Virus record (IMG/VR): IMGVR_UViG_3300012155_000041
Coordinates: 1-9,014 of that record
From: a virus
Lineage: Duplodnaviria > Heunggongvirae > Uroviricota > Caudoviricetes
Reading direction: 5' to 3' (one strand)
DNA: 9,014 nucleotides
Shown here: one piece after another, positions 1-9,014 of the stretch
How the letters are laid out: the number at the start of each line of letters is the position of its first letter
Numbering within the stretch: position 1 is the first letter of the stretch
Position numbers and translations under genes: made by a program
Notes under the pieces: generated by a model
The model's database searches: none
Seen by the model: the letters and a program-made list of their open reading frames with translations, nothing else
What the model was told of the DNA's origin: nothing

Positions 1-261
1 GCGCTTATTGTTCGCCAGCAGCGACTGAAATTAAACCTGTCCGGAAGGCTGGCAATAAAAATTATTGCAGAGCCGCCGGATAAGCGCCGTCGTGACCTGG
101 ACAATATTCTGAAAGCACCACTGGATGCGCTGACGCATGCGGGGCTTCTCATCGACGACGAGCAGTTTGATGAAATTAATATTGTGCGCGGTCAGGTCGT
201 TCCTGGTGGTCGGTTGGGCGTGAAGATTTACGAAATTACAGGTGATAACGATGGTGCGTGA
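1..261 (+). CDS. rusA: Crossover junction endodeoxyribonuclease RusA (Holliday junction resolvase), C-terminal part; 5' end lies outside the window
   Basis: Frame 1 is open from base 1 to TGA at 259-261 and translates to ...[58 protein letters not shown], which I recognise as the conserved RusA C-terminus. Position directly upstream of Q is the usual lambdoid arrangement. Confidence 0.8.
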
Positions 262-637
262 TATTCAGCAGGTTATGGAGCGGTGGGGGGCATGGGCTGC
301 AAACAATCACGAAGATGTGTCCTGGGCGTCAATCGCTGCTGGTTTTAAAGGATTAATTCCGCCGAAAGTGAAATCACGTCCTCAGTGTTCTGATGATGAT
401 GCGATGATAATTTGTGGCTGTATGGCCCGGTTGAACAAGAAAAATCAGGATTTGCACGATTTGTTGGTGGATTATTACGTAGGTGGAATGACTTTTATGG
501 GGTTGGCACGAAAGCATGGGTGTTCGGATACCTGTATTGGCAAGCGCCTGCAGAAAGCGGAAGGGGTTATTGATGGTATGTTGATGATGCTTGATATCCG
601 ACTGGAGATGGACAGATACGTAGAACGAATTATATAG
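251..637 (+). CDS. Late-gene antitermination protein Q (phage 82 / DLP12 QuuD-like)
   Basis: ORF 242..637; ATG at 251 is preferred because AGGTGA at 240-245 sits 5 nt upstream, whereas 242 is a GTG. Product [35 protein letters not shown]...CGCMARL...[11 protein letters not shown] resembles the 82-type Q antiterminators as I recall them. Overlaps the rusA stop, typical for rusA-Q. Confidence 0.85.
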
Positions 638-642
638 GCGCT

Positions 643-673
643 TGACCAGACACATTGTCCGGGGCTATATTTC
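643..673 (+). promoter_or_regulatory. Candidate late promoter PR' with Q-utilisation region (sigma70-type, TTGACC -35 and TATATT/CTATAT -10)
   Basis: TTGACC at 643-648 lies 6 nt after the Q stop codon; CTATAT/TATATT at 666-673 gives a 17-19 bp spacer. Location immediately downstream of Q matches the known position of PR' in 82-like phages. Not tested. Confidence 0.5.
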
Positions 674-732
674 TGACGCAGCCGCAAAATCGGTTGTCGG
701 GATTGGCGTCCCGGATAGAAACCGCGACAGAT

Positions 733-757
733 ACACGCCGCGAGCGTGTTTTTTATT
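733..757 (+). terminator. Intrinsic terminator, candidate tR' (end of the short PR' leader RNA)
   Basis: GC-rich hairpin ACACGC-CGCGA-GCGTGT (733-749) followed by TTTTTTATT. It lies about 60-80 nt downstream of the candidate PR', the expected geometry for the lambdoid 6S-type leader transcript. Confidence 0.55.
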
Positions 758-915
758 GTCGTATGCACGCGCACATCTGAACTATGGTGAGCTGTGTGGG
801 GGAGCTTAAAAGCTCGCCGGTCGGTTTCCCGGTTACGCCAACCCTGCACAGTTCACCACCAGACGGTTGGCGTCGTCGGTGGTGAGTTATTTAGAAACCA
901 CTCGAGGGCGTCATT

Positions 916-1503
916 ATGACAACTCAAATCTCTGTTGAAACTCTCTCCCCGATCACCCATAACCAGATCCCCGTTATCACTACTGAACTTTTGGCGCAGC
1001 TTTACGGTACCGAGATCAACAATATCAAAGTCAATTACACCCGTAATGCTGAAAGGTTTGTTGAGGGAAAACACTTTTTCAAAGTTGGTGGCGATGCCCT
1101 GAAAAATTTGCGGGTTACTTTAAGTAACTCACAAAATTTGCAACCATCTTTAAGAGGGTTACAAATTTCCCCGAAAACCCGCTCGCTCATACTCTGGACA
1201 GAACGCGGAGCAGCCCGCCACGCAAAAATGCTGGAAACCGATCAGGCATGGGAGGTATTCGAAAAACTGGAAGATTGTTATTTCAGCCGAAAACAACCAG
1301 CTGCAGCACAAAACACATCTATCGAAAATGATGGGGGCGCATTACTGATTCACTTCGATAAACACGGGCAGGTCGAGTTCACGGAAAAAGTACCCGCCGA
1401 TGCGATGGTATGCACTCTGGAGCGGTTTAAATTTTATCTGGAACAACGCGGCTGGATCGTTGCCCGTAAAGAGCAACTGGTGGAACGGCTGATGCGGCTT
1501 TAA
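916..1503 (+). CDS. ORF6N-domain protein (KilA-N-related putative DNA-binding domain) with an uncharacterised ~70-aa C-terminal region; first gene of the late transcript
   Basis: 195-codon ORF with GAGGG 8 nt upstream of the ATG. The N-terminal ~125 aa show the ORF6N pattern (LAQLYGTE..N..RNAERFVEGKHFF ... LWTERGAARHAKMLETDQAWEVFE), recalled from the family consensus; the C-terminal part is not recognised. Confidence 0.7.
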   Translation: MTTQISVETLSPITHNQIPVITTELLAQLYGTEINNIKVNYTRNAERFVEGKHFFKVGGDALKNLRVTLSNSQNLQPSLRGLQISPKTRSLILWTERGAARHAKMLETDQAWEVFEKLEDCYFSRKQPAAAQNTSIENDGGALLIHFDKHGQVEFTEKVPADAMVCTLERFKFYLEQRGWIVARKEQLVERLMRL

Positions 1504-1580
1504 GAAATTTTCCCCGAACGCTTTACGATCGTAAAAAGTTGAATATCCTGTTAAGAGTGGTTACTACGCCACACAGCTTA

Positions 1581-1604
1581 AACCCGCCGTGAGCGGGTTT
1601 TTTA
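1581..1604 (+). terminator. Intrinsic terminator downstream of the ORF6N gene
   Basis: Hairpin AACCCGC-CGTGA-GCGGGTT (1581-1599) followed by a T-run to 1604. Confidence 0.6.
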
Positions 1605-2347
1605 TGCCCGAAAAGCGGCACAGTACGTTAAACGTGCTGGTGGTTGCGAATACCGGTTGGCGATTATCAGGGATGTTTGGTTGCTGATTTTTTATGGGGT
1701 CTGGCTCAATAATAAAGGCAGTACTTTCACTGGGACGTCGTGCAATTGGTGTAAAACTGGAGGAAGAGAGATTCAATCAAACGGTTGGTGAAGTGCGGCA
1801 AAAATGCTGACTGGCGATATTGTTTTTTATGTTTTTATAAAAAAACAAAAACATATGGATATATTTGCATTTTTTGACAGTGTTACCTGTTGAAACCTTG
1901 CATCAGATAATTATTATTTGCGCTGGTTTTTGGGAAAGATTCTTTTACGAGGTTAATTATCTTTTCCCTGTAACCCGGAGTACTGGTGTATAGCAGTTGT
2001 AATCCTGATTGTTCAGGTTAATGATGTCGCTGCCAGCTTCACGGGAATATGACTAAGCCTTATTCGTTTAGCACTGGCGCGTTTTGCGTGGGATTAGGTT
2101 GTTGAGAAGTGTATGCCCACCCCGAACTATAATGTGCAACCTGTTATAGTTTCAGTGCTTGTTTTTTTTACAGTATCAGAATGGCGCATTGTCGAAAAGA
2201 AGTAGCAGGATTTAGCGTCGAGAGGCTGATGATGCGTCATTCTGATGCTGTTGCAGATATAATTTGAGGTGTATCCCAGTGCGGGAGTGGCCGGGAATAT
2301 TTTACGCCGAAGGTCACAACATATTGCTTATTGAGGCAGGTGATATG

Positions 2348-2371
2348 TTTCGGGAGGCACCCGACACCTCA
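2348..2371 (+). repeat. 24-nt box TTTCGGGAGGCACCCGACACCTCA, copy A (self-complementary core; candidate sRNA element)
   Basis: Identical 24-mer occurs again at 3114-3137. It contains nested complementary segments (TCGGG/CCCGA, GAGG/CCTC) and is preceded in both copies by CAGGT(G)AT. No CRISPR-like regular spacing and no ORF is conserved across the two copies. Confidence 0.6.
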
Positions 2372-2405
2372 AACCTTATAATGATAGCGTGTTCTTTTAG
2401 TCATT

Positions 2406-2431
2406 AACCGTCGTGTCAGGCGGTTTTTTTT
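2406..2431 (+). terminator. Intrinsic terminator following box copy A
   Basis: AACCG-(10-nt loop)-CGGTT followed by eight T. The stem is weaker than in copy B, but the AACCG...CAGGCGG-T(8-9) arrangement is shared by both copies. Confidence 0.45.
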
Positions 2432-2578
2432 ACGCAGCGGTATAAAAATATCATATTTAATAATTGCCAGAGAAATAAATTTGTTTGTATATTGTCGGGC
2501 ATGTGTTACTCGTGCGTGAAAAGTTCACAAAAAGTAAGAACAAAAAGATAAATTTACATAACTTGACTTGATGCGTTA

Positions 2579-2606
2579 TTGCTCCTGCATCATTTAACCG
2601 TATTAT
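2579..2606 (+). promoter_or_regulatory. Putative sigma70 promoter for the tRNA pair (TTGCTC -35, TATTAT -10), preceded by an A-rich upstream tract
   Basis: TTGCTC at 2579-2584, 16-bp spacer, TATTAT at 2601-2606, about 60 nt upstream of the tRNA-Thr 5' end. The A/T-rich tract at 2520-2560 resembles the UP/FIS regions of stable-RNA promoters. Sequence-pattern call only. Confidence 0.3.
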
Positions 2607-2667
2607 CAAAGGCGGTTCTGAGGGGGGCACCTGTTCACCGATGATATTGATTCCCTGAAGAACCAAT

Positions 2668-2743
<76 letters not shown>

Positions 2744-2746
2744 TAT

Positions 2747-2821
<75 letters not shown>

Positions 2822-3113
2822 ACAGTAGACGAAATCTGGTTATATTAGGCACTGCACATTGATATGTGGGGCGTTTTCCTGATTCCTTACCGCGTCCTGT
2901 TCTGTAATATGTGATGCAGGTTACAGTCCAGTGCCATTTTTTTACAATAATGGCATGGTGCATTGTCGGTGGAGATTTTGTATTTCCTGGCAGGGGCCGA
3001 TGATGCACTATCCCTGTGTTGTAAAATAATACCGCAGAGGTGTTCCTCAGCGCGAGGGTGGTTTAAAGAGTCGGTTTAGCGGGAAACCACAGTATCTGCT
3101 AACGGGTCAGGTA

Positions 3114-3137
3114 TTTCGGGAGGCACCCGACACCTCA
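3114..3137 (+). repeat. 24-nt box TTTCGGGAGGCACCCGACACCTCA, copy B
   Basis: Exact second copy of the box at 2348-2371, again followed about 40 nt later by a terminator. Confidence 0.6.
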
Positions 3138-3177
3138 GTTTTACAACAATAAAAACAGCTTATATTTTGCATTGACC

Positions 3178-3204
3178 AACCGCCACACCAGGCGGTTTTT
3201 TTTT
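3178..3204 (+). terminator. Intrinsic terminator following box copy B
   Basis: Perfect 7-bp stem AACCGCC/GGCGGTT with loop ACACCA, followed by nine T (3196-3204). Confidence 0.6.
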
Positions 3205-3372
3205 ATTCACAATCCTGTTTCTTATGGCTCGCTACGGCGAGCTTTTTCATACCTGCGTCACGACTGGCGCTCATCAAATAACACCAGATAAAAGGCATTT
3301 GTGGGTGCCTTTGATGTGGTGTTGTTTTTTATGGGCCGCTGGTGGCCATTTTTTATTTACAGGAGAAAAAGT

Positions 3373-3765
3373 ATGTCTGAACCCTTATCCGGTTCCGGCA
3401 CGGCTGCGGCGCTCGGCGGGGCGACGGTATTCGGGCTGTTTACCGGAACGGATTTCGGGATTGTGTTTGGTGCGTTTGCCGGGGCGTTGTTTGTGGCAAC
3501 GATGCCGCAGGCGCTTTCAGCCTGGCGTGTGGCGGCGCATTTTCTGGTGTCGTTCATTATCGGCGTGCTGGGCGCAGAGGTTCTGGCATCCTGGCTGGTA
3601 AAGCATACAGGGTTTGACGGTGCGCCTGTCGACGCACTGTGTGCAGTGCTGGTGTCAGTGGTGTCGGTGAAGATTCTCTCGTTCATCCACCAGCAGGATA
3701 TTGCATCACTGGTGTCCGGCCTGTTCTCCCGCCTGCGGGGTGGAGGAGGCGGCAATGTTAAGTAA
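3373..3765 (+). CDS. Multi-pass membrane protein of the lysis cassette (putative holin or antiholin; 3-4 predicted transmembrane segments, Gly-rich C-tail)
   Basis: ORF 3301..3765; ATG at 3373 preferred because AGGAG at 3361-3365 is 7 nt upstream. Product MSEPLSGSGTAAALGGATVFGLFTG... has several hydrophobic stretches and a short hydrophilic C-terminus, and sits immediately upstream of the endolysin. Function inferred from position and hydropathy only. Confidence 0.55.
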   Translation: MSEPLSGSGTAAALGGATVFGLFTGTDFGIVFGAFAGALFVATMPQALSAWRVAAHFLVSFIIGVLGAEVLASWLVKHTGFDGAPVDALCAVLVSVVSVKILSFIHQQDIASLVSGLFSRLRGGGGGNVK

Positions 3766-4030
3766 CCTTCCCGGATTACTGAATGTGGCGTTATGCACGG
3801 TTATCGTGCTGACGCTCTTTTTTTATCGTCGCCGTGATTCCAGACATAAACCGCTGATGTCATGGCTGGCCTGGCTGCTGATGCTGCTGTATGCCTTTGC
3901 GCCCCTCAGCTATCTGTGTGGTCGCCCGTTAGCAACGGGCTGGCTGGAAGTGTTTTTTAATCTGCTGTTCTGCGTGTTGGTGATACGCGCACGCGGGAAC
4001 GTCACAAAAATCTTTCCATTGTTGAGGTGA
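3755..4030 (+). CDS. Second lysis-cassette membrane protein, about 91 aa with 3 predicted transmembrane segments (class-I-holin-like topology)
   Basis: ATG at 3755 with GGAGGAGG at 3742-3749; its start overlaps the stop of the preceding gene (ATGTTAAGTAA). Product MLSNLPGLLNVALCTVIVLTLFFYRRRD... has three hydrophobic segments separated by charged loops. Its stop at 4028-4030 abuts the endolysin start. Confidence 0.55.
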   Translation: MLSNLPGLLNVALCTVIVLTLFFYRRRDSRHKPLMSWLAWLLMLLYAFAPLSYLCGRPLATGWLEVFFNLLFCVLVIRARGNVTKIFPLLR

Positions 4031-4032
4031 AT

Positions 4033-4410
4033 ATGTCGGGTAAATTCAGATTCAGCCGTCGCAGTGAAAAAAATCTGGAGGGTGTCAAACCACAGCTGGT
4101 TGCTGTCGTTCGCCGTGCGCTGGAGCTGACGGAGGTTGACTTTGGTATTACGGAAGGGCTGCGCACGAAAGAACGCCAGAAACAGCTGGTCGCGGAAGGG
4201 AAAAGCCAGACCATGAACAGCCGCCACCTGACCGGTGATGCGGTGGATGTTGTTGCCTGGGTTGGCAGCCAGGTGTCATGGGACTGGCCTCTGTACGAGA
4301 AAATCGCGCAGGCATTTAAGCAGGCTGCCGCAGAGCTGGGAACTGCCATCGAATGGGGCGGGGACTGGAAAACACTGAAAGACGGGCCTCACTTTCAGTT
4401 GAAACGCTGA
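4033..4410 (+). CDS. Endolysin, zinc peptidase M15 family (putative L-alanyl-D-glutamate or D-Ala-D-Ala type peptidoglycan peptidase)
   Basis: ORF 4027..4410; ATG at 4033 with GAGGTGA 4-10 nt upstream. Product has the spacing of the M15 zinc-ligand motifs (SRHLTGDAVDV ... DGPHFQL) and is the right size (about 125 aa) for phage M15 endolysins. Confidence 0.8.
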   Translation: MSGKFRFSRRSEKNLEGVKPQLVAVVRRALELTEVDFGITEGLRTKERQKQLVAEGKSQTMNSRHLTGDAVDVVAWVGSQVSWDWPLYEKIAQAFKQAAAELGTAIEWGGDWKTLKDGPHFQLKR

Positions 4411-4424
4411 TAACCAGGTGTGTT

Positions 4425-4607
4425 ATGAGCAGAAAACACTGGACACACAGAATGCCGCGAACGGCGGCGAAATGGGCACTGGTAGCGATACTGGTGCCTT
4501 TTTTTCTGGTGGGATGCGTCAGTCTGGATAAGGCGCGCCAGCTTTTCGATACAGCTTCTCAGGTCTGTGAAATTGTCGACGGTGTTCGGCAGTGTCTGCA
4601 GAACTGA
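4425..4607 (+). CDS. Small lipoprotein (signal peptide with lipobox LVGC; about 30-aa mature part with two further Cys), possible outer-membrane spanin-like lysis accessory protein
   Basis: ATG at 4425 with AGGTG upstream, in frame with ORF 4353..4607. Product MSRKHWTHRMPRTAAKWALVAILVPFFLVGC|VSLDKARQLFDTASQVCEIVDGVRQCLQN has a positively charged n-region, hydrophobic core and lipobox. It sits where Rz/Rz1-type genes are normally found. Confidence 0.5.
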   Translation: MSRKHWTHRMPRTAAKWALVAILVPFFLVGCVSLDKARQLFDTASQVCEIVDGVRQCLQN

Positions 4608-4780
4608 TCGCCTGTAAGAGCAGAATATTTTGCTGAAAAATGAAGGATGCGTCAGCGTCCGGAAAGCATGAAATTCTGCTGTGTGTGTCAATTTGTCTTA
4701 TACATTCTGAATATTGCCGAATCAGGATGAACTTTGATCAACAGCCCGGGCGGCAAGGGGCATTTTTATCCGGAGGGGAT

Positions 4781-4987
4781 ATGAAGAGATTACTGGTAAC
4801 CGTAAAGCCCTTTAACGGAACGATTCCATTCAGGGTTTTGCAGCGTGGACGTGTTCTGGTTAAGGATATCTTCAGTGGTAAATGCACGGAGTGTTATTCC
4901 CGGACATATGAAGTGGATGCCACGGATGAAGAGGTAACTGTTGAGTGTGATAGCGGGATAGTCTCAGCTACATTGCTTCATGGATGA
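4781..4987 (+). CDS. Hypothetical protein, 68 aa, soluble, Cys-containing (C..C...C)
   Basis: Strong RBS GGAGGGG at 4772-4778 before the ATG at 4781. The longer ORF 4640..4987 in the track has no RBS at its 5' end. No recognisable domain. Confidence 0.5.
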   Translation: MKRLLVTVKPFNGTIPFRVLQRGRVLVKDIFSGKCTECYSRTYEVDATDEEVTVECDSGIVSATLLHG

Positions 4988-5012
4988 ACTGGGTTGTTGC
5001 TGGAGGATGCAA

Positions 5013-5213
5013 ATGAATTACCAGCTGGCAAAACTTTATCGTGGTAAACATTTCGTAGGGTATGGGATTGCAGTTAATGGTGAGTTACTGGAAGGACAGC
5101 TTTTCGCCAGGACAGAGTCACGCGGAGGCGAGCCACCAACAGTCACTGTGACTTTCAGACTGACAGCAGAGCATATCGAGAATCAGCCCGTCATTAAACT
5201 GAACAGGGGGTGA
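5013..5213 (+). CDS. Hypothetical protein, 66 aa
   Basis: GGAGG at 5002-5006 is 6 nt upstream of the ATG at 5013 (the in-frame ATG at 5007 is too close to the RBS). Stop at 5211-5213 lies just before the HNH gene. No recognisable domain. Confidence 0.5.
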   Translation: MNYQLAKLYRGKHFVGYGIAVNGELLEGQLFARTESRGGEPPTVTVTFRLTAEHIENQPVIKLNRG

Positions 5214-5220
5214 GGTATTT

Positions 5221-5571
5221 ATGCCATCACGAATCCCCCGCGCATGTCGTAAGCGAGGCTGCGCAGGCACAACAACAGACAGCTCTGGCTACTGCGATAA
5301 ACATCGGGGTGAAGGCTGGGTGCAGCACCAACGTGGACTGAGCCGCCACCAGCGTGGCTATGGCTCGAAATGGGATGCCATACGTGCGCGCATACTGAAG
5401 CGTGATAATCATCTGTGTCAGAACTGCCTGCGCAATGGGAGAGCCGTTGAAGCCAGAACTGTGGACCACATCATTCCGAAAGCGCATGGCGGAACAGACG
5501 CAGACAGTAACCTGCAGAGTCTGTGCTGGCCCTGTCATAAAGCAAAAACAGCGCGCGAACGCATCAATTGA
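5221..5571 (+). CDS. Phage HNH homing-type endonuclease (terminase-associated)
   Basis: RBS GGGGGTGAGG before the ATG at 5221. Product has N-terminal Cys pairs plus an HNH core (DHIIPKAHGG ... NLQSLCWPCHKAKT). Position immediately upstream of a P27-family small terminase is the conserved HK97-like arrangement. Confidence 0.85.
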   Translation: MPSRIPRACRKRGCAGTTTDSSGYCDKHRGEGWVQHQRGLSRHQRGYGSKWDAIRARILKRDNHLCQNCLRNGRAVEARTVDHIIPKAHGGTDADSNLQSLCWPCHKAKTARERIN

Positions 5572-5718
5572 TAACAGTTCCCATCTGCAGGGGAGGGGCG
5601 GGTCAAATCTCTGCCGCCCTGGCTGCTCAGTACCGCCGCCTGACCCTTCCTCGCATCGCCGCAGGTTCGAAAACTTTTTTTTGGAATGTGATTGAATGAT
5701 TGATAGGTAAAACCGATT
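5572..5718 (+). other. Intergenic region expected to contain the cohesive-end (cos) site and packaging signals
   Basis: In HK97-like genomes cos lies between the HNH gene and the small terminase gene. This 147-bp region has a G-rich tract (GGGGAGGGGCGGG, 5590-5602), an inverted repeat GGGCGG...CCGCCC (5596-5619) and a T9 run (5675-5683). The exact cos cut site cannot be determined from sequence alone. Confidence 0.3.
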
Positions 5719-6201
5719 ATGTCAGGACCCCCGAAAACCCCGCCACGCCTGCATTTGATACGAGGTAACCCCTCAAAGCGCCCCGTTAAAGACCCAAAAA
5801 AAACCGCTAAAAAGGATGAAAAAGGTCTCCCTAAAATTCCGCAACATTTAGGGTCGCAGGGGAAGTACTGGTTCAGGCGAATGGCGGAAGAACTGAATGC
5901 GGAAGGGATCATTTCTCAGCTTGATGCGCGTGCACTCGAGTTACTGGTGGAAGCCTACACCGAATACCGGCATCACTGCGAAACACTTGATGCTGAGGGT
6001 TATACCTACCGCACGGAAACGCAGAACGGTGATGTGCTGATTAAGGCACACCCGGCTGCTGCGATGAAAGCGGATGCCTGGAAGCGGATCCGGGCGATGC
6101 TTGCAGAATTTGGTATGTCACCGGCAAGCCGGGCGAAAGTAAATACCGCCGGACCGGATGATGTTGATCCGCTGGCGGAGCTTTTAAAAGCGAGAGACTG
6201 A
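5719..6201 (+). CDS. Terminase small subunit, P27 family
   Basis: 160-aa product with a basic N-terminus and the conserved ...LLVEAYTEYR...AEFGMSPASRAKV... P27-family pattern. Its stop overlaps the large terminase start (TGATG at 6199-6203). Confidence 0.85.
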   Translation: MSGPPKTPPRLHLIRGNPSKRPVKDPKKTAKKDEKGLPKIPQHLGSQGKYWFRRMAEELNAEGIISQLDARALELLVEAYTEYRHHCETLDAEGYTYRTETQNGDVLIKAHPAAAMKADAWKRIRAMLAEFGMSPASRAKVNTAGPDDVDPLAELLKARD

Positions 6202-7958
6202 TGGCAAAAGTGGCTGACGGGATCCGCTACGCCGAACGTGTTGTTGCAGGAGAAATTGTCGCTGGCGAATTTGTCCGTCTGGCCTGCCAGCGTTTTCTTG
6301 ATGATCTGAAGTACGGCGAAGAGCGGGGGATTTATTTCAGTGAACCCCGTGCGCAGCACATCCTGAATTTCTACAAATTTGTGCCCCATGTGAAAGGGGC
6401 GCTGGCAGGCCAGCCCATTGAGTTGATGGACTGGCATGTATTTATCCTCATTAATATTTTTGGTTTTGTCATTCCGCTGGTGAATGAAGAGACCGGGGAA
6501 GTTGTCATGCGCAGCGATGGCAGCGGACGCCCGGTGATGGTGCGCCGGTTCCGGACGGCGTACAACGAAGTCGCCCGTAAAAACGCAAAATCAACCCTGT
6601 CATCGGGTATCGGTCTGTATATGACGGGGGCAGATGGTGAAGGCGGGGCTGAGGTGTATTCAGCCGCAACCACGCGTGACCAGGCCAGAATCGTGTTTGA
6701 AGACGCCAAAAATATGGTCAGAAAAGCCCGGTCGACACTCGGGCGGTTGTTTGATTTCAACAAGCTGGCGATTTACCAGGAGCAGAGCGCATCAAAATTT
6801 GAACCGCTTTCCTCGGATGCAAACAACCTGGACGGTCTGAACATCCACTGCGCCATTATTGATGAGCTGCATGCACATAAAACCCGCGACGTGTGGGACG
6901 TTCTGGAGACGGCAACCGGTGCCCGTCTGCAGTCCCTGTTATTTGGCATCACCACGGCTGGCTTTAACAAGGAAGGGATTTGTTACGAGCAGCGCGATTA
7001 CGCCATTAAGGTATTGCGAGGCTATAACAGCGACGTGGAGGGCGCGGTAAAAGACGACTCCTACTTTGCGATTATTTACACCCTCGATGAGGGCGATGAT
7101 CCGTTTGATGAGACGGTCTGGCAGAAAGCGAACCCCGGACTGGGCATCTGTAAACGCTGGGATGATCTGCGTCGTCTGGCGAAAAAAGCGAAGGAACAGG
7201 TCTCTGCGCGGGTAAATTTTTTTACCAAACACATGAATGTGTGGGTAACAGCAGAGTCTGCCTGGATGGACATGATTAAGTGGGAGAAGTGCGAATACAT
7301 TGCCCCACGACATGAGCTGAAAACGTATCCCATGTGGGTCGGCGTCGACCTTGCTCATAAGATTGATATCTGTGCGGCGGCAAAACTCTGGCGAACGGAT
7401 AACGGGCATGTTCATGCCGATTTTAAATTCTGGCTTCCGGAAGGACGACTGGAGCGATGCTCGCGGCAGCAGGCAGAACTTTACCGGAAGTGGGCGGAGA
7501 TGGATAAGCTGATTCTGACGGATGGTGATGTTATCGATCATGCTCAGATAAAAAGTGACTTACTGGAATGGATTGGTGGTGAAAACCTCAGGGAACTGGG
7601 ATTTGACCCGTGGAGCGCGATGCAGTTCAGCCTGGCACTGGCTGAAGAAGGGATACCGCTGGTGGAGGTTCCGCAGACGGTTCGCAATCTGTCTGAAGCC
7701 ATGAAAGAAACGGAATCACTGGTCTATGCCGGGCGTTTCCATCACAGCAATCATCCGGTCATGAACTGGATGATGTCTAACGTTACGGTAAAACCGGACA
7801 AAAACGACAATATCTTCCCGAATAAATCCACGCCGGAAGCCAAAATCGACGGCCCTGTTGCGATGTTTACAGCAATGAGCCGGATGCTGGTCAATGGTGG
7901 TGAACCGGAGCCGGATCTGTCTGAACATCTGGTCAGTGTGGGCATCCGCTCGCTTTAA
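6201..7958 (+). CDS. Terminase large subunit (Terminase_1 / HK97-like ATPase-nuclease)
   Basis: 585-aa ORF translationally coupled to the small terminase. Size and composition are typical of large terminases, and the flanking HNH, small terminase and portal genes support the call. Confidence 0.9.
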
Positions 7959-7969
7959 CCGAGGTCATT

Positions 7970-8152
7970 ATGTTTCTGATAATTCTTGCGCCATTGGTGG
8001 GCGTGCTGGGTGCGCTTTTGCTGGCGTATGGTGCCTGGCTGATTTATCCCCCGGCGGGTTTTGTTGTTGCCGGGGCGCTGTGTCTGTGCTGGTCGTGGCT
8101 GGTTGCGCGTTATCTCGATCGCGGTCACCGGGTCGCCTCCGGAGGTGAGTAA
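7970..8152 (+). CDS. Small hydrophobic protein, 60 aa with 2 predicted transmembrane helices, inserted between the large terminase and portal genes
   Basis: GAGGT at 7961-7965 before the ATG at 7970. Product [60 protein letters not shown]. Its stop TAA (8150-8152) overlaps the portal start (TAATG). Confidence 0.5.
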
Positions 8153-9014
8153 TGTTTTTCCAGGGGCTTTTTCAACGCAAAAATAACACCCCCGTCACAA
8201 CGCCCGGGATGCTTGCGGAAGAACTTGGATTGTCATACGACACCTATACCGGAAAGCGGATCAGCAGCCAGCGGGCCATGCGGCTGACGGCGGTGTATTC
8301 CTGCGTCAGGGTGCTGGCGGAGTCTGTTGGTATGCTGCCCTGCAGCCTCTACAAAATCACCGGCACCCTTAAAACACGGGCGGTGGATGAACGACTGCAT
8401 AAGCTGGTTTCGGCAAAACCTAATGGCTACATGACACCGCAGGAATTCTGGGAGCTGGTTATCGTCTGCCTGTGTCTGCGGGGTAATTTTTACGCCTACA
8501 AGGTAAAGGCACTGGGGGAAGTGGTGGAGCTTCTCCCGATAGATCCGGGCTGTGTGGAACTGAAGCTGAACAGCCAGTGGCAGCCGGTTTATCAGGTGAC
8601 GTTTCCGGATGGTTCCGTGGATGTGTTGACCCAGGATGAAATCTGGCATGTGCGCACCCTGACGCTGGATGGACTTGTCGGTCTGAATCCCATTGCGTAT
8701 GCGCGTGAGGCCATTTCACTGGCAGCGGCAACCGAGGAGCACGGCGCCAGGCTGTTTGGTAACGGCGCTGTGACATCCGGTGTGTTGCGTACAGAACAAA
8801 AGCTCACGCCGGATGCTTATGAGCGCATGAAGAGGGATTTTGAGGAGCGTCATCTTGGGCTGGGTAATGCGCACCGTCCGATGATTCTGGAAATGGGGCT
8901 GGACTGGAAGCCGGTGGCACTGAATGCCGAGGACAGCCAGTTCCTGGAAACCCGCAAGTTTCAGCTGGAAGAAATCTGTCGCCTGTTCCGCGTACCGCTG
9001 CATATGGTGCAGAA
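8152..9014 (+). CDS. Portal protein, HK97 family; N-terminal ~287 codons, 3' end lies outside the window
   Basis: Open frame from the ATG at 8152 (RBS GGAGGTGAG at 8141-8149) to the window end; it has no stop codon, which is why it is absent from the ORF track. Translation [26 protein letters not shown]...AVYSCVRVLAESVGMLPCSLYK...GNAHRPMILEMGLDWKP... resembles HK97-type portals. Confidence 0.85.
   Translation, partial: MFFQGLFQRKNNTPVTTPGMLAEELGLSYDTYTGKRISSQRAMRLTAVYSCVRVLAESVGMLPCSLYKITGTLKTRAVDERLHKLVSAKPNGYMTPQEFWELVIVCLCLRGNFYAYKVKALGEVVELLPIDPGCVELKLNSQWQPVYQVTFPDGSVDVLTQDEIWHVRTLTLDGLVGLNPIAYAREAISLAAATEEHGARLFGNGAVTSGVLRTEQKLTPDAYERMKRDFEERHLGLGNAHRPMILEMGLDWKPVALNAEDSQFLETRKFQLEEICRLFRVPLHMVQ

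Follow-up and report, generated by a model that had tools for sequence, protein, structure and literature searches.

An orphan prolipoprotein behind the endolysin gene of phiP27-like phages and its possible role in outer-membrane lysis

Described lysis proteins and the prolipoprotein gene

In lambdoid phages the third step of lysis, the breach of the outer membrane after holin and endolysin have removed the cell wall, is the job of Rz/Rz1. Unimolecular spanins (u-spanins) such as T1 gp11 link both membranes by a periplasmic domain of ~100 residues, which ends in a transmembrane segment at the C-terminus. Colicin lysis proteins are made as precursors of 45-52 aa with a mature form of 28-35 residues, and they permeabilise the envelope alone, via OmpLA and without an inner-membrane partner. 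Small disulfide-bearing phage outer-membrane lipoproteins (Llp, Cor, Bor) serve accessory roles, as receptor-masking and superinfection-exclusion proteins or as host-fitness factors. No spanin can be recognised in about 13-15% of the phages that infect Gram-negative bacteria, and only one alternative has been characterised, the disruptin of phage phiKT (PMC6139136; bioRxiv 10.1101/515445), whose gp28 replaces spanins in a phage without them (bioRxiv 10.1101/515445). Here we analyse a prolipoprotein gene at positions 4425-4607 (+ strand) of a window of 9,014 nucleotides, positions 1 to 9,014 of the IMG/VR virus record IMGVR_UViG_3300012155_000041. The gene stands behind the endolysin gene in the late region of a phiP27-like temperate phage. 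Among the loci examined this lipoprotein and Rz/Rz1 are interchangeable in position and mutually exclusive, and the lipoprotein is an orphan throughout its family. We give odds of about one in two to the reading that it is a late outer-membrane lipoprotein which would replace spanin function without a phage inner-membrane subunit; this reading is built on sequence comparison.

The gene (60 codons plus stop; 60-aa product MSRKHWTHRMPRTAAKWALVAILVPFFLVGCVSLDKARQLFDTASQVCEIVDGVRQCLQN) starts 14 nt after the endolysin stop codon, and a Shine-Dalgarno-like AGGTG (4416-4420, +) lies 4 nt 5' of its ATG. The lipoprotein signal was judged by rule (lipobox and +2 residue) on the sequence. Residues 1-30 (4425-4514, +) make up the predicted signal peptide, composed of a basic n-region of 17 residues (MxRKHWTHRxPRxAAKW), a hydrophobic core of 12 residues (ALVAILVPFFLV) and the lipobox LVG/C (L-V-G-C31). 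The mature peptide (4515-4604, +) would have 30 aa, beginning with lipidated Cys31, which V follows at +2. An amphipathic helix is predicted for it; it contains no proline and has Cys at positions 31, 48 and 57 of the precursor. The signal peptide is the single hydrophobic segment, and the protein ends 29 residues past Cys31. Family members have V, A, T, G, S or E at +2, and none of them has D. Since V, not Asp, occupies this position here, the +2 rule of E. coli predicts sorting to the outer membrane. In the phiP27 copy 25/30 residues are helical according to Jpred (PMC6139136). The maximum hydrophobic moment of the helix is 0.45-0.62 as compared to 0.31-0.38 in shuffles. Cys48 and Cys57, 9-10 residues apart and near the C-terminus, are invariant.

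M1 is taken as the conserved start because M10 is replaced by T, I or V in many homologues. An upstream-extended reading frame of 84 aa (from 4353) was dropped, as it overlaps the M15 endolysin out of frame and is impossible where the endolysin is GH108. A Tat signal (RR in subfamily 2) was dropped too, since subfamily 1 has R-T and the motif context is wrong. The 17-residue n-region (4425-4475, residues 1-17) is far longer than expected of an E. coli lipoprotein signal. It holds ~6 basic residues, its RKHWTHRxPR stretch is kept from E. coli to Lelliottia, and such conservation is more than export alone seems to need. Several relatives (L005, L008, L010, L011, L084 at 4001-4219, and L019; L numbers denote related loci) have lost the stop codon and carry a C-terminal extension of 9-12 residues, 69-72 aa in total.

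It is important to note that 4425-4607 is a real gene under purifying selection: dN/dS is 0.10-0.43 against the Citrobacter, Yersinia and Salmonella copies. There are 141 homologues, found in Escherichia, Salmonella, Citrobacter, Cronobacter and Yersinia. They form two subfamilies with the common pattern C...EK/DKAR...C...C, and the lipobox and C31/C48/C57 are invariant among those aligned. The product matches phrog_7528 (unknown function) over its full length (residues 1-60/60, E=6.8e-38). An exhaustive profile search of 1.84 billion representatives gave 23 matches, all of the same enterobacterial family, and no bridge to known spanins; with only 23 representative clusters the family is narrow. 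Annotated as hypothetical, the gene is present in 354/5426 complete E. coli genomes, and its carriers include the Shiga-toxin phages phiP27 and phiSTEC1575-Stx2k. A Lelliottia copy with 58% identity lies directly after an endolysin gene. PDB sequence matches at 8e-5 and 2e-3 were taken as chance, as they cover 14-19 residues of an eggshell-membrane protein and of PCNA. A record named 'Actinobacillus phage vB_Apl-pPE4' (L002, PP818812.1) is ~91% identical to the lysis region and carries the lipoprotein without annotation; its stated host looks doubtful.

Comparison with lambda Rz1 gives a mixed picture. The precursors have the same length (60 aa), both are small outer-membrane lipoproteins (here by prediction) and both occupy the slot after the endolysin. 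However, Rz1 has 10 prolines and our protein has none, being predicted helical with no proline-rich region, and it does not match the Rz1 family PF06085 at E<=0.1 while the same library scores the Rz1 of PhiR12_1 at 7e-22. Two periplasmic cysteines, present also in T4 PseT.2, are the commonest pattern among outer-membrane spanins (o-spanins) (PMC6139136). Unlike the o-spanins of two-component systems, the lipoprotein has no gene for an inner-membrane spanin (i-spanin) embedded, overlapping, adjacent or elsewhere in the sequences screened. With T1 gp11 it shares the single gene and the N-terminal lipoprotein signal, but it has no second hydrophobic segment and so little sequence past the lipid anchor (29 residues).

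The colicin lysis lipoproteins (PF02402) are of a similar size class (a ~30-residue lipopeptide) and also have a lipobox. In these proteins the signal peptide itself is functional, and the conserved n-region described above may be a parallel. Nevertheless, there is no sequence similarity, and colicin lysis proteins are rich in Gly/Ser, lack structure and Cys, and are encoded on plasmids in SOS operons. Likewise a single small amphipathic helical peptide, the disruptin gp28 of coliphage phiKT (bioRxiv 10.1101/515445) is cationic and non-lipidated, whereas the lipoprotein is predicted to be lipid-anchored and is near neutral, with a net charge of -1. T5 Llp, phi80/N15 Cor and lambda Bor are small phage outer-membrane lipoproteins as well, Llp with a disulfide. 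The genes for these are found next to tail or receptor-binding genes, or are expressed from a separate promoter on the opposite strand, and they act in lysogens or early in infection, whereas our gene is coupled to an endolysin and shows no homology to them. As a cognate i-spanin is lacking, there is no match to the Rz1, colicin-lysis or Bor/Cor/Llp families and the transmembrane segment of u-spanins is absent, the lipoprotein was not filed in any of these families.

Exchange with Rz/Rz1 and the search for an inner-membrane partner

The window has a lysis cassette in the order holin, holin, endolysin, lipoprotein, with the lipoprotein gene last. The first holin-family protein (Phage_holin_8, PF16931) is encoded at 3373-3765 (+), the second (Phage_holin_3_7, PF05449, three membrane segments) at 3755-4030 (+), and the endolysin (Peptidase_M15_4, L-alanyl-D-glutamate peptidase type) at 4033-4410 (+) with its stop codon at 4408-4410. 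We compared this arrangement in ~100 related loci, 86 of them scorable and most of them closely related E. coli prophages. In all ~100 the lipoprotein gene lies 3' of the endolysin gene, on the same strand and ahead of the packaging genes, and it follows the endolysin directly in 43 of the 86 scorable loci. Direct adjacency occurs in at least six phage backbones, which include P27-type HNH/TerS, lambda Nu1-type, Mu-like, Terminase_2 and ParB/TAGT. Spacing can be tighter than in the window: the 5' end of the lipoprotein gene and the 3' end of the endolysin gene share 4 nt in Yersinia (L091) and a Mu-like phage (L108), whereas the two genes are 3 nt apart in L089 and abut (0 nt) in L110. Endolysins beside the lipoprotein are either M15_4 or GH108+PG_binding_3, and the holins are holin_8+holin_3_7 or holin_3_1. 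Adjacency of endolysin and lipoprotein is the sole constant among these varying neighbours, and in some relatives various inserts part the two genes. SerU-LTIIb was uninformative, as LT-II toxin genes follow the endolysin in place of the lipoprotein gene.

Tiny membrane proteins are encoded immediately ahead of the lipoprotein, with a 1-nt spacing, in 38/86 loci. They are of two kinds, TMa (phrog_4493/1115, 37-48 aa) and, sometimes also present, TMb (phrog_4906, 44 aa); all lie outside the window (L030 3662-3996; L021 3826-3999; L103 2432-2793; L105 1630-1782). In lipoprotein cassettes as well as in Stx-type phages with Rz/Rz1, one or both stand between the endolysin and the spanin slot, in tight coupling with the gene that follows. 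PhiR12_1 has the order R, TMa, TMb, Rz/Rz1 (PF03245 at 6e-51; PF06085 at 7e-22) and L030 has endolysin, TMa, TMb, lipoprotein. DNA homology between the two (84%) is limited to TMa and TMb and stops where Rz or the lipoprotein starts. TMa and Rz in GER2 have the same 1-nt spacing as TMa and the lipoprotein in L021. As the shared TMa-TMb homology ends there and the spacing is equal, the lipoprotein occupies the exact position of Rz/Rz1. TMa/TMb as specific partners of the lipoprotein were rejected, since the module is found ahead of genuine Rz/Rz1 as well, in PhiR12_1 and GER2.

GER2 and E. coli FDAARGOS_401 have Rz, and in both a lipoprotein copy farther downstream is a pseudogene with a 1-nt insertion (frameshift) at codon 2 and several in-frame stops. 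The decayed copies (L105 2988-3171 in GER2; L106 2501-2675) lie 3' of Rz. Decay of the lipoprotein where Rz is present fits redundancy. Also upstream of the decayed copies stands an opposite-strand moron for an LPS heptose-phosphatase (Ais-like), in Sepvirinae-type Stx phages. The corresponding band of 60-80% identity contains 32 E. coli records, one of which was inspected.

The search for an inner-membrane partner was made with simple hydropathy rules for membrane segments. In the window, no alternative-frame open reading frame (ORF) with a transmembrane segment was found in 4000-4800, and ORFs of at least 28-30 aa around 4000-5400 in all frames had no membrane segment beyond the lipoprotein's own signal peptide. 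No credible gene was found in 4608-4780, and the two small soluble ORFs after the lipoprotein gene (4781-4987 and 5013-5213) have no membrane segment. In the ~100 related loci, tblastn with lambda Rz and Rz1 gave no match, and a screen for ORFs that have 65-230 aa and a membrane segment at the N-terminus gave no i-spanin; a similar screen of the complete phiP27 genome found neither i-spanin nor Rz/Rz1. The screens picked up nothing but internal starts of holins, signal peptides of toxins and out-of-frame noise. The protein has the lipobox and the lysis-cassette position of an o-spanin, with two invariant cysteines whose putative disulfides may be intra- or intermolecular, and lacks a cognate i-spanin. 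An earlier note, made from the letters of this window, had described an orphan 60-aa lipoprotein precursor after the endolysin, with a mature part of about 30 aa that is not proline-rich, has three Cys, is unlike lambda Rz1 and is too short for a unimolecular spanin; it had also called the following ~170 bp non-coding and the next genes small soluble proteins, and had seen no i-spanin partner. All of this description was borne out, and the lack of a partner now extends to other frames, the related loci and the whole phiP27 genome.

Previously, the protein has been catalogued in a different way. Kongari et al. 2018 list phiP27 as having a 'separated' two-component spanin, its o-spanin being a singleton family (PMC6139136). 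The catalogued i-spanin (record 20348-20542, 64 aa) and o-spanin (20706-20861, 51 aa) have the shortest combined periplasmic length in the catalogue, 32 + 30 = 62 residues (PMC6139136). The o-spanin is the homologue of our lipoprotein, read from M10. The 'i-spanin' (L001 4265-4459, +) we rejected as an antisense artefact of a conserved 90-aa gene on the opposite strand. It starts with TTG within a ~480-bp segment between endolysin and lipoprotein and matches no PHROG; the 90-aa product of the opposite strand, by contrast, gives a full-length match to phrog_36812. Homologues of the latter have 62-78% identity and every one of them is exactly 90 aa long. In the four homologous loci examined the 90-aa sense frame is open and the 'i-spanin' frame has 2-3 stop codons, and phages with these loci have ordinary spanin-type genes (PF03245, DUF2514). 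The ~480-bp segment occurs in 4/86 scorable loci and is absent from the window. The lipoprotein is therefore an orphan across the whole family and not just in the window.

Proposed role and rival explanations

If the lipoprotein does replace spanin function, the gene would be transcribed late, together with the endolysin, from a Q-dependent operon. The precursor would be exported, lipidated at Cys31 and cut by signal peptidase II, and Lol would sort the product to the inner leaflet of the outer membrane. We infer this route of export and sorting because of the lipobox and the non-Asp residue at +2. The part that follows the lipid anchor would be an amphipathic helix of 29 residues with the two conserved cysteines presumably disulfide-bonded by Dsb. 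The lipoprotein may then act at the outer-membrane step, after holin and endolysin, and so do the job of Rz/Rz1 without a phage-encoded inner-membrane subunit. One option is that it perturbs the membrane or activates a host factor, as the colicin lysis lipoproteins do via OmpLA. Another option is homotypic pairing between a precursor retained in the inner membrane and the mature outer-membrane form: the long basic signal peptide would hold the precursor in the inner membrane, and pairing through the Cys-bearing helix would make a self-partnering spanin. Only tentatively do we go further and suggest that a disulfide-bearing lipopeptide of 30 residues, working through a host envelope factor or by pairing with itself, may be a third route to outer-membrane disruption, one that needs a single gene. 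Localisation, disulfides and lytic role are what we infer from the signals and the comparisons above. A cationic, disruptin-like action is not supported, because the net charge is -1 to +2.

Several points weigh against this proposal. With its 30 residues the mature peptide falls far short of bridging the periplasm. In lambda, Rz1 has no activity in the absence of Rz, and no precedent is known for an o-spanin acting alone. AlphaFold2 models the lipoprotein as one long helix with low confidence (pLDDT 69), and the net charge, about -1 in the window's subfamily, ranges from 0 to +2 among the four remaining members scored. TMa/TMb may contribute where they are present (38/86 relatives). The case of the pseudogene with Rz is probably a single evolutionary event, and the locus counts are not independent, as closely related E. 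coli prophages dominate.

The explanation that competes best, although we consider it unlikely, is a canonical o-spanin with an unrecognised inner-membrane partner, the pair bridging and fusing the membranes as Rz/Rz1 do. The lipobox, the two cysteines and the cassette position suit an o-spanin, and the phiP27 homologue has been filed as the o-spanin of a 'separated' two-component system (PMC6139136). Yet the i-spanin published with it is the antisense artefact described above, confined to 4/86 loci and absent from the window. A partner would have to be sought in a holin-family protein, in TMa/TMb or in a protein of the host or of a co-resident prophage. The small membrane protein directly upstream with a 1-nt spacing in 38/86 loci is one candidate, but TMa/TMb would expose <=~20 periplasmic residues and also stand ahead of genuine Rz/Rz1 in Stx-type phages. 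No membrane protein is common to all cassettes and the holins differ. In the window and in the Yersinia, Lelliottia, Mu-like and L089 cassettes nothing lies between endolysin and lipoprotein.

An accessory, moron-type lipoprotein is somewhat less probable still. Like T5 Llp and phi80/N15 Cor, the protein could mask receptors or exclude superinfection and so protect progeny from debris, or it could be a Bor-like host-fitness factor. Small disulfide-bearing phage outer-membrane lipoproteins are known in such roles, and the lambdoid post-lysis region is a known moron site: L021 encodes a true Bor homologue, separate from the lipoprotein, shortly downstream and on the opposite strand, the endolysin of SerU-LTIIb is followed by LT-II toxin genes, and relatives carry the inserts between endolysin and lipoprotein mentioned above. 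However, no promoter of its own is detectable. There is no space for one ahead of the gene and the GC content is similar to that of the neighbouring genes, which together disfavour an independently expressed moron; with no promoter and a 14-nt gap or an overlap with the endolysin gene, the lipoprotein should be silent in lysogens. The gene is linked to endolysins and not to tail or receptor-binding genes, it is found with at least six virion modules, unlike a receptor-specific blocker, and it has decayed precisely where Rz is present. The earlier note had named Bor/Cor-type homology as a point to check, and searches of Pfam (E<=0.1), NCBIfam and PADLOC gave no match to Rz1, Bor, Cor-type, Llp-type or colicin-lysis families.

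A lysis regulator, that is a periplasmic lipid-anchored modulator of endolysin activity or lysis timing, is the least probable role: the gene is tightly coupled to the endolysin gene and extra regulators are known in lysis cassettes, one of them being Lcc6, a small membrane protein in LambdaSo (bioRxiv 10.1101/2024.01.23.576932), but two unrelated endolysin folds and different holins accompany the lipoprotein, making a specific protein target unlikely, and the predicted outer-membrane anchor, the Rz/Rz1 slot and the exclusivity with Rz/Rz1 point to the outer-membrane step. Among the three functions offered in the earlier note, comparative evidence favours the divergent spanin-type lysis component and disfavours surface exclusion and regulation.

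Surroundings of the gene and meaning of the orphan lipoprotein

The signal-peptide coding region contains a terminator-like RNA hairpin of 11 pairs followed by U7 (4474-4506, +), with the sequence GGGCACUGGUAGCGAUACUGGUGCC plus U7 and an A-tract upstream. The 61-nt fold around it has -24.3 kcal/mol (z = -3.5). Its nucleotides are near-invariant across genera, the rare codons GTA and ATA included, whereas the rest of the gene has a dS of 0.4-0.7. The hairpin is retained in the GER2-type pseudogene copies with wobble-compatible changes. A function for it is at most tentative, as true covariation is minimal.

Positions 3300-5300 of the window are 95.7% identical to the Shiga-toxin 2e phage phiP27 across 68% of the query, and this lysis region is matched in prophages of 418 complete E. 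coli genomes. Upstream of the cassette are a Q antiterminator gene (242-637), a gene for an ORF6N protein (antirepressor-like, 916-1503) and genes for tRNA-Thr and tRNA-Gly (2668-2821). The latter occupy the site where phiP27 has tRNA-Ile, tRNA-Arg and stx2e (window 2668-2821 vs L001 1075-2654); the lysis cassette is common to the window and phiP27 and the upstream cargo is different. Between the Q and ORF6N genes Rfam places isrK (678-754), a C4 antisense RNA (780-863) and its a1b1 target (665-717), all within 665-863 (+). Together they form an antisense immunity module of the P1/P7 type, here in the late region of a lambdoid phage. Downstream of the two small soluble ORFs follow genes for an HNH endonuclease and for both terminase subunits, small and large, of P27 type. 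A 60-aa ORF with two membrane segments (7970-8152, +; phrog_502, 'membrane protein') separates the large terminase gene from the portal gene. phiP27 (L37) and the Yersinia prophage L091 have it in the corresponding position, which is an odd site for a membrane protein.

The protein is already catalogued, its phiP27 homologue being an o-spanin in PMC6139136. What is new here is that the lipoprotein is an orphan family-wide, and our results suggest a possible one-gene lysis route. Regarding annotation, the catalogue entry for an i-spanin in phiP27 is corrected, and pipelines should expect no partner for this lipoprotein. The family offers a tractable E. coli case for outer-membrane breach without spanins. 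If it is true that the lipoprotein acts alone, this would be relevant to lysis biology, to ghost and protein-release systems and to antimicrobials that target the outer membrane.

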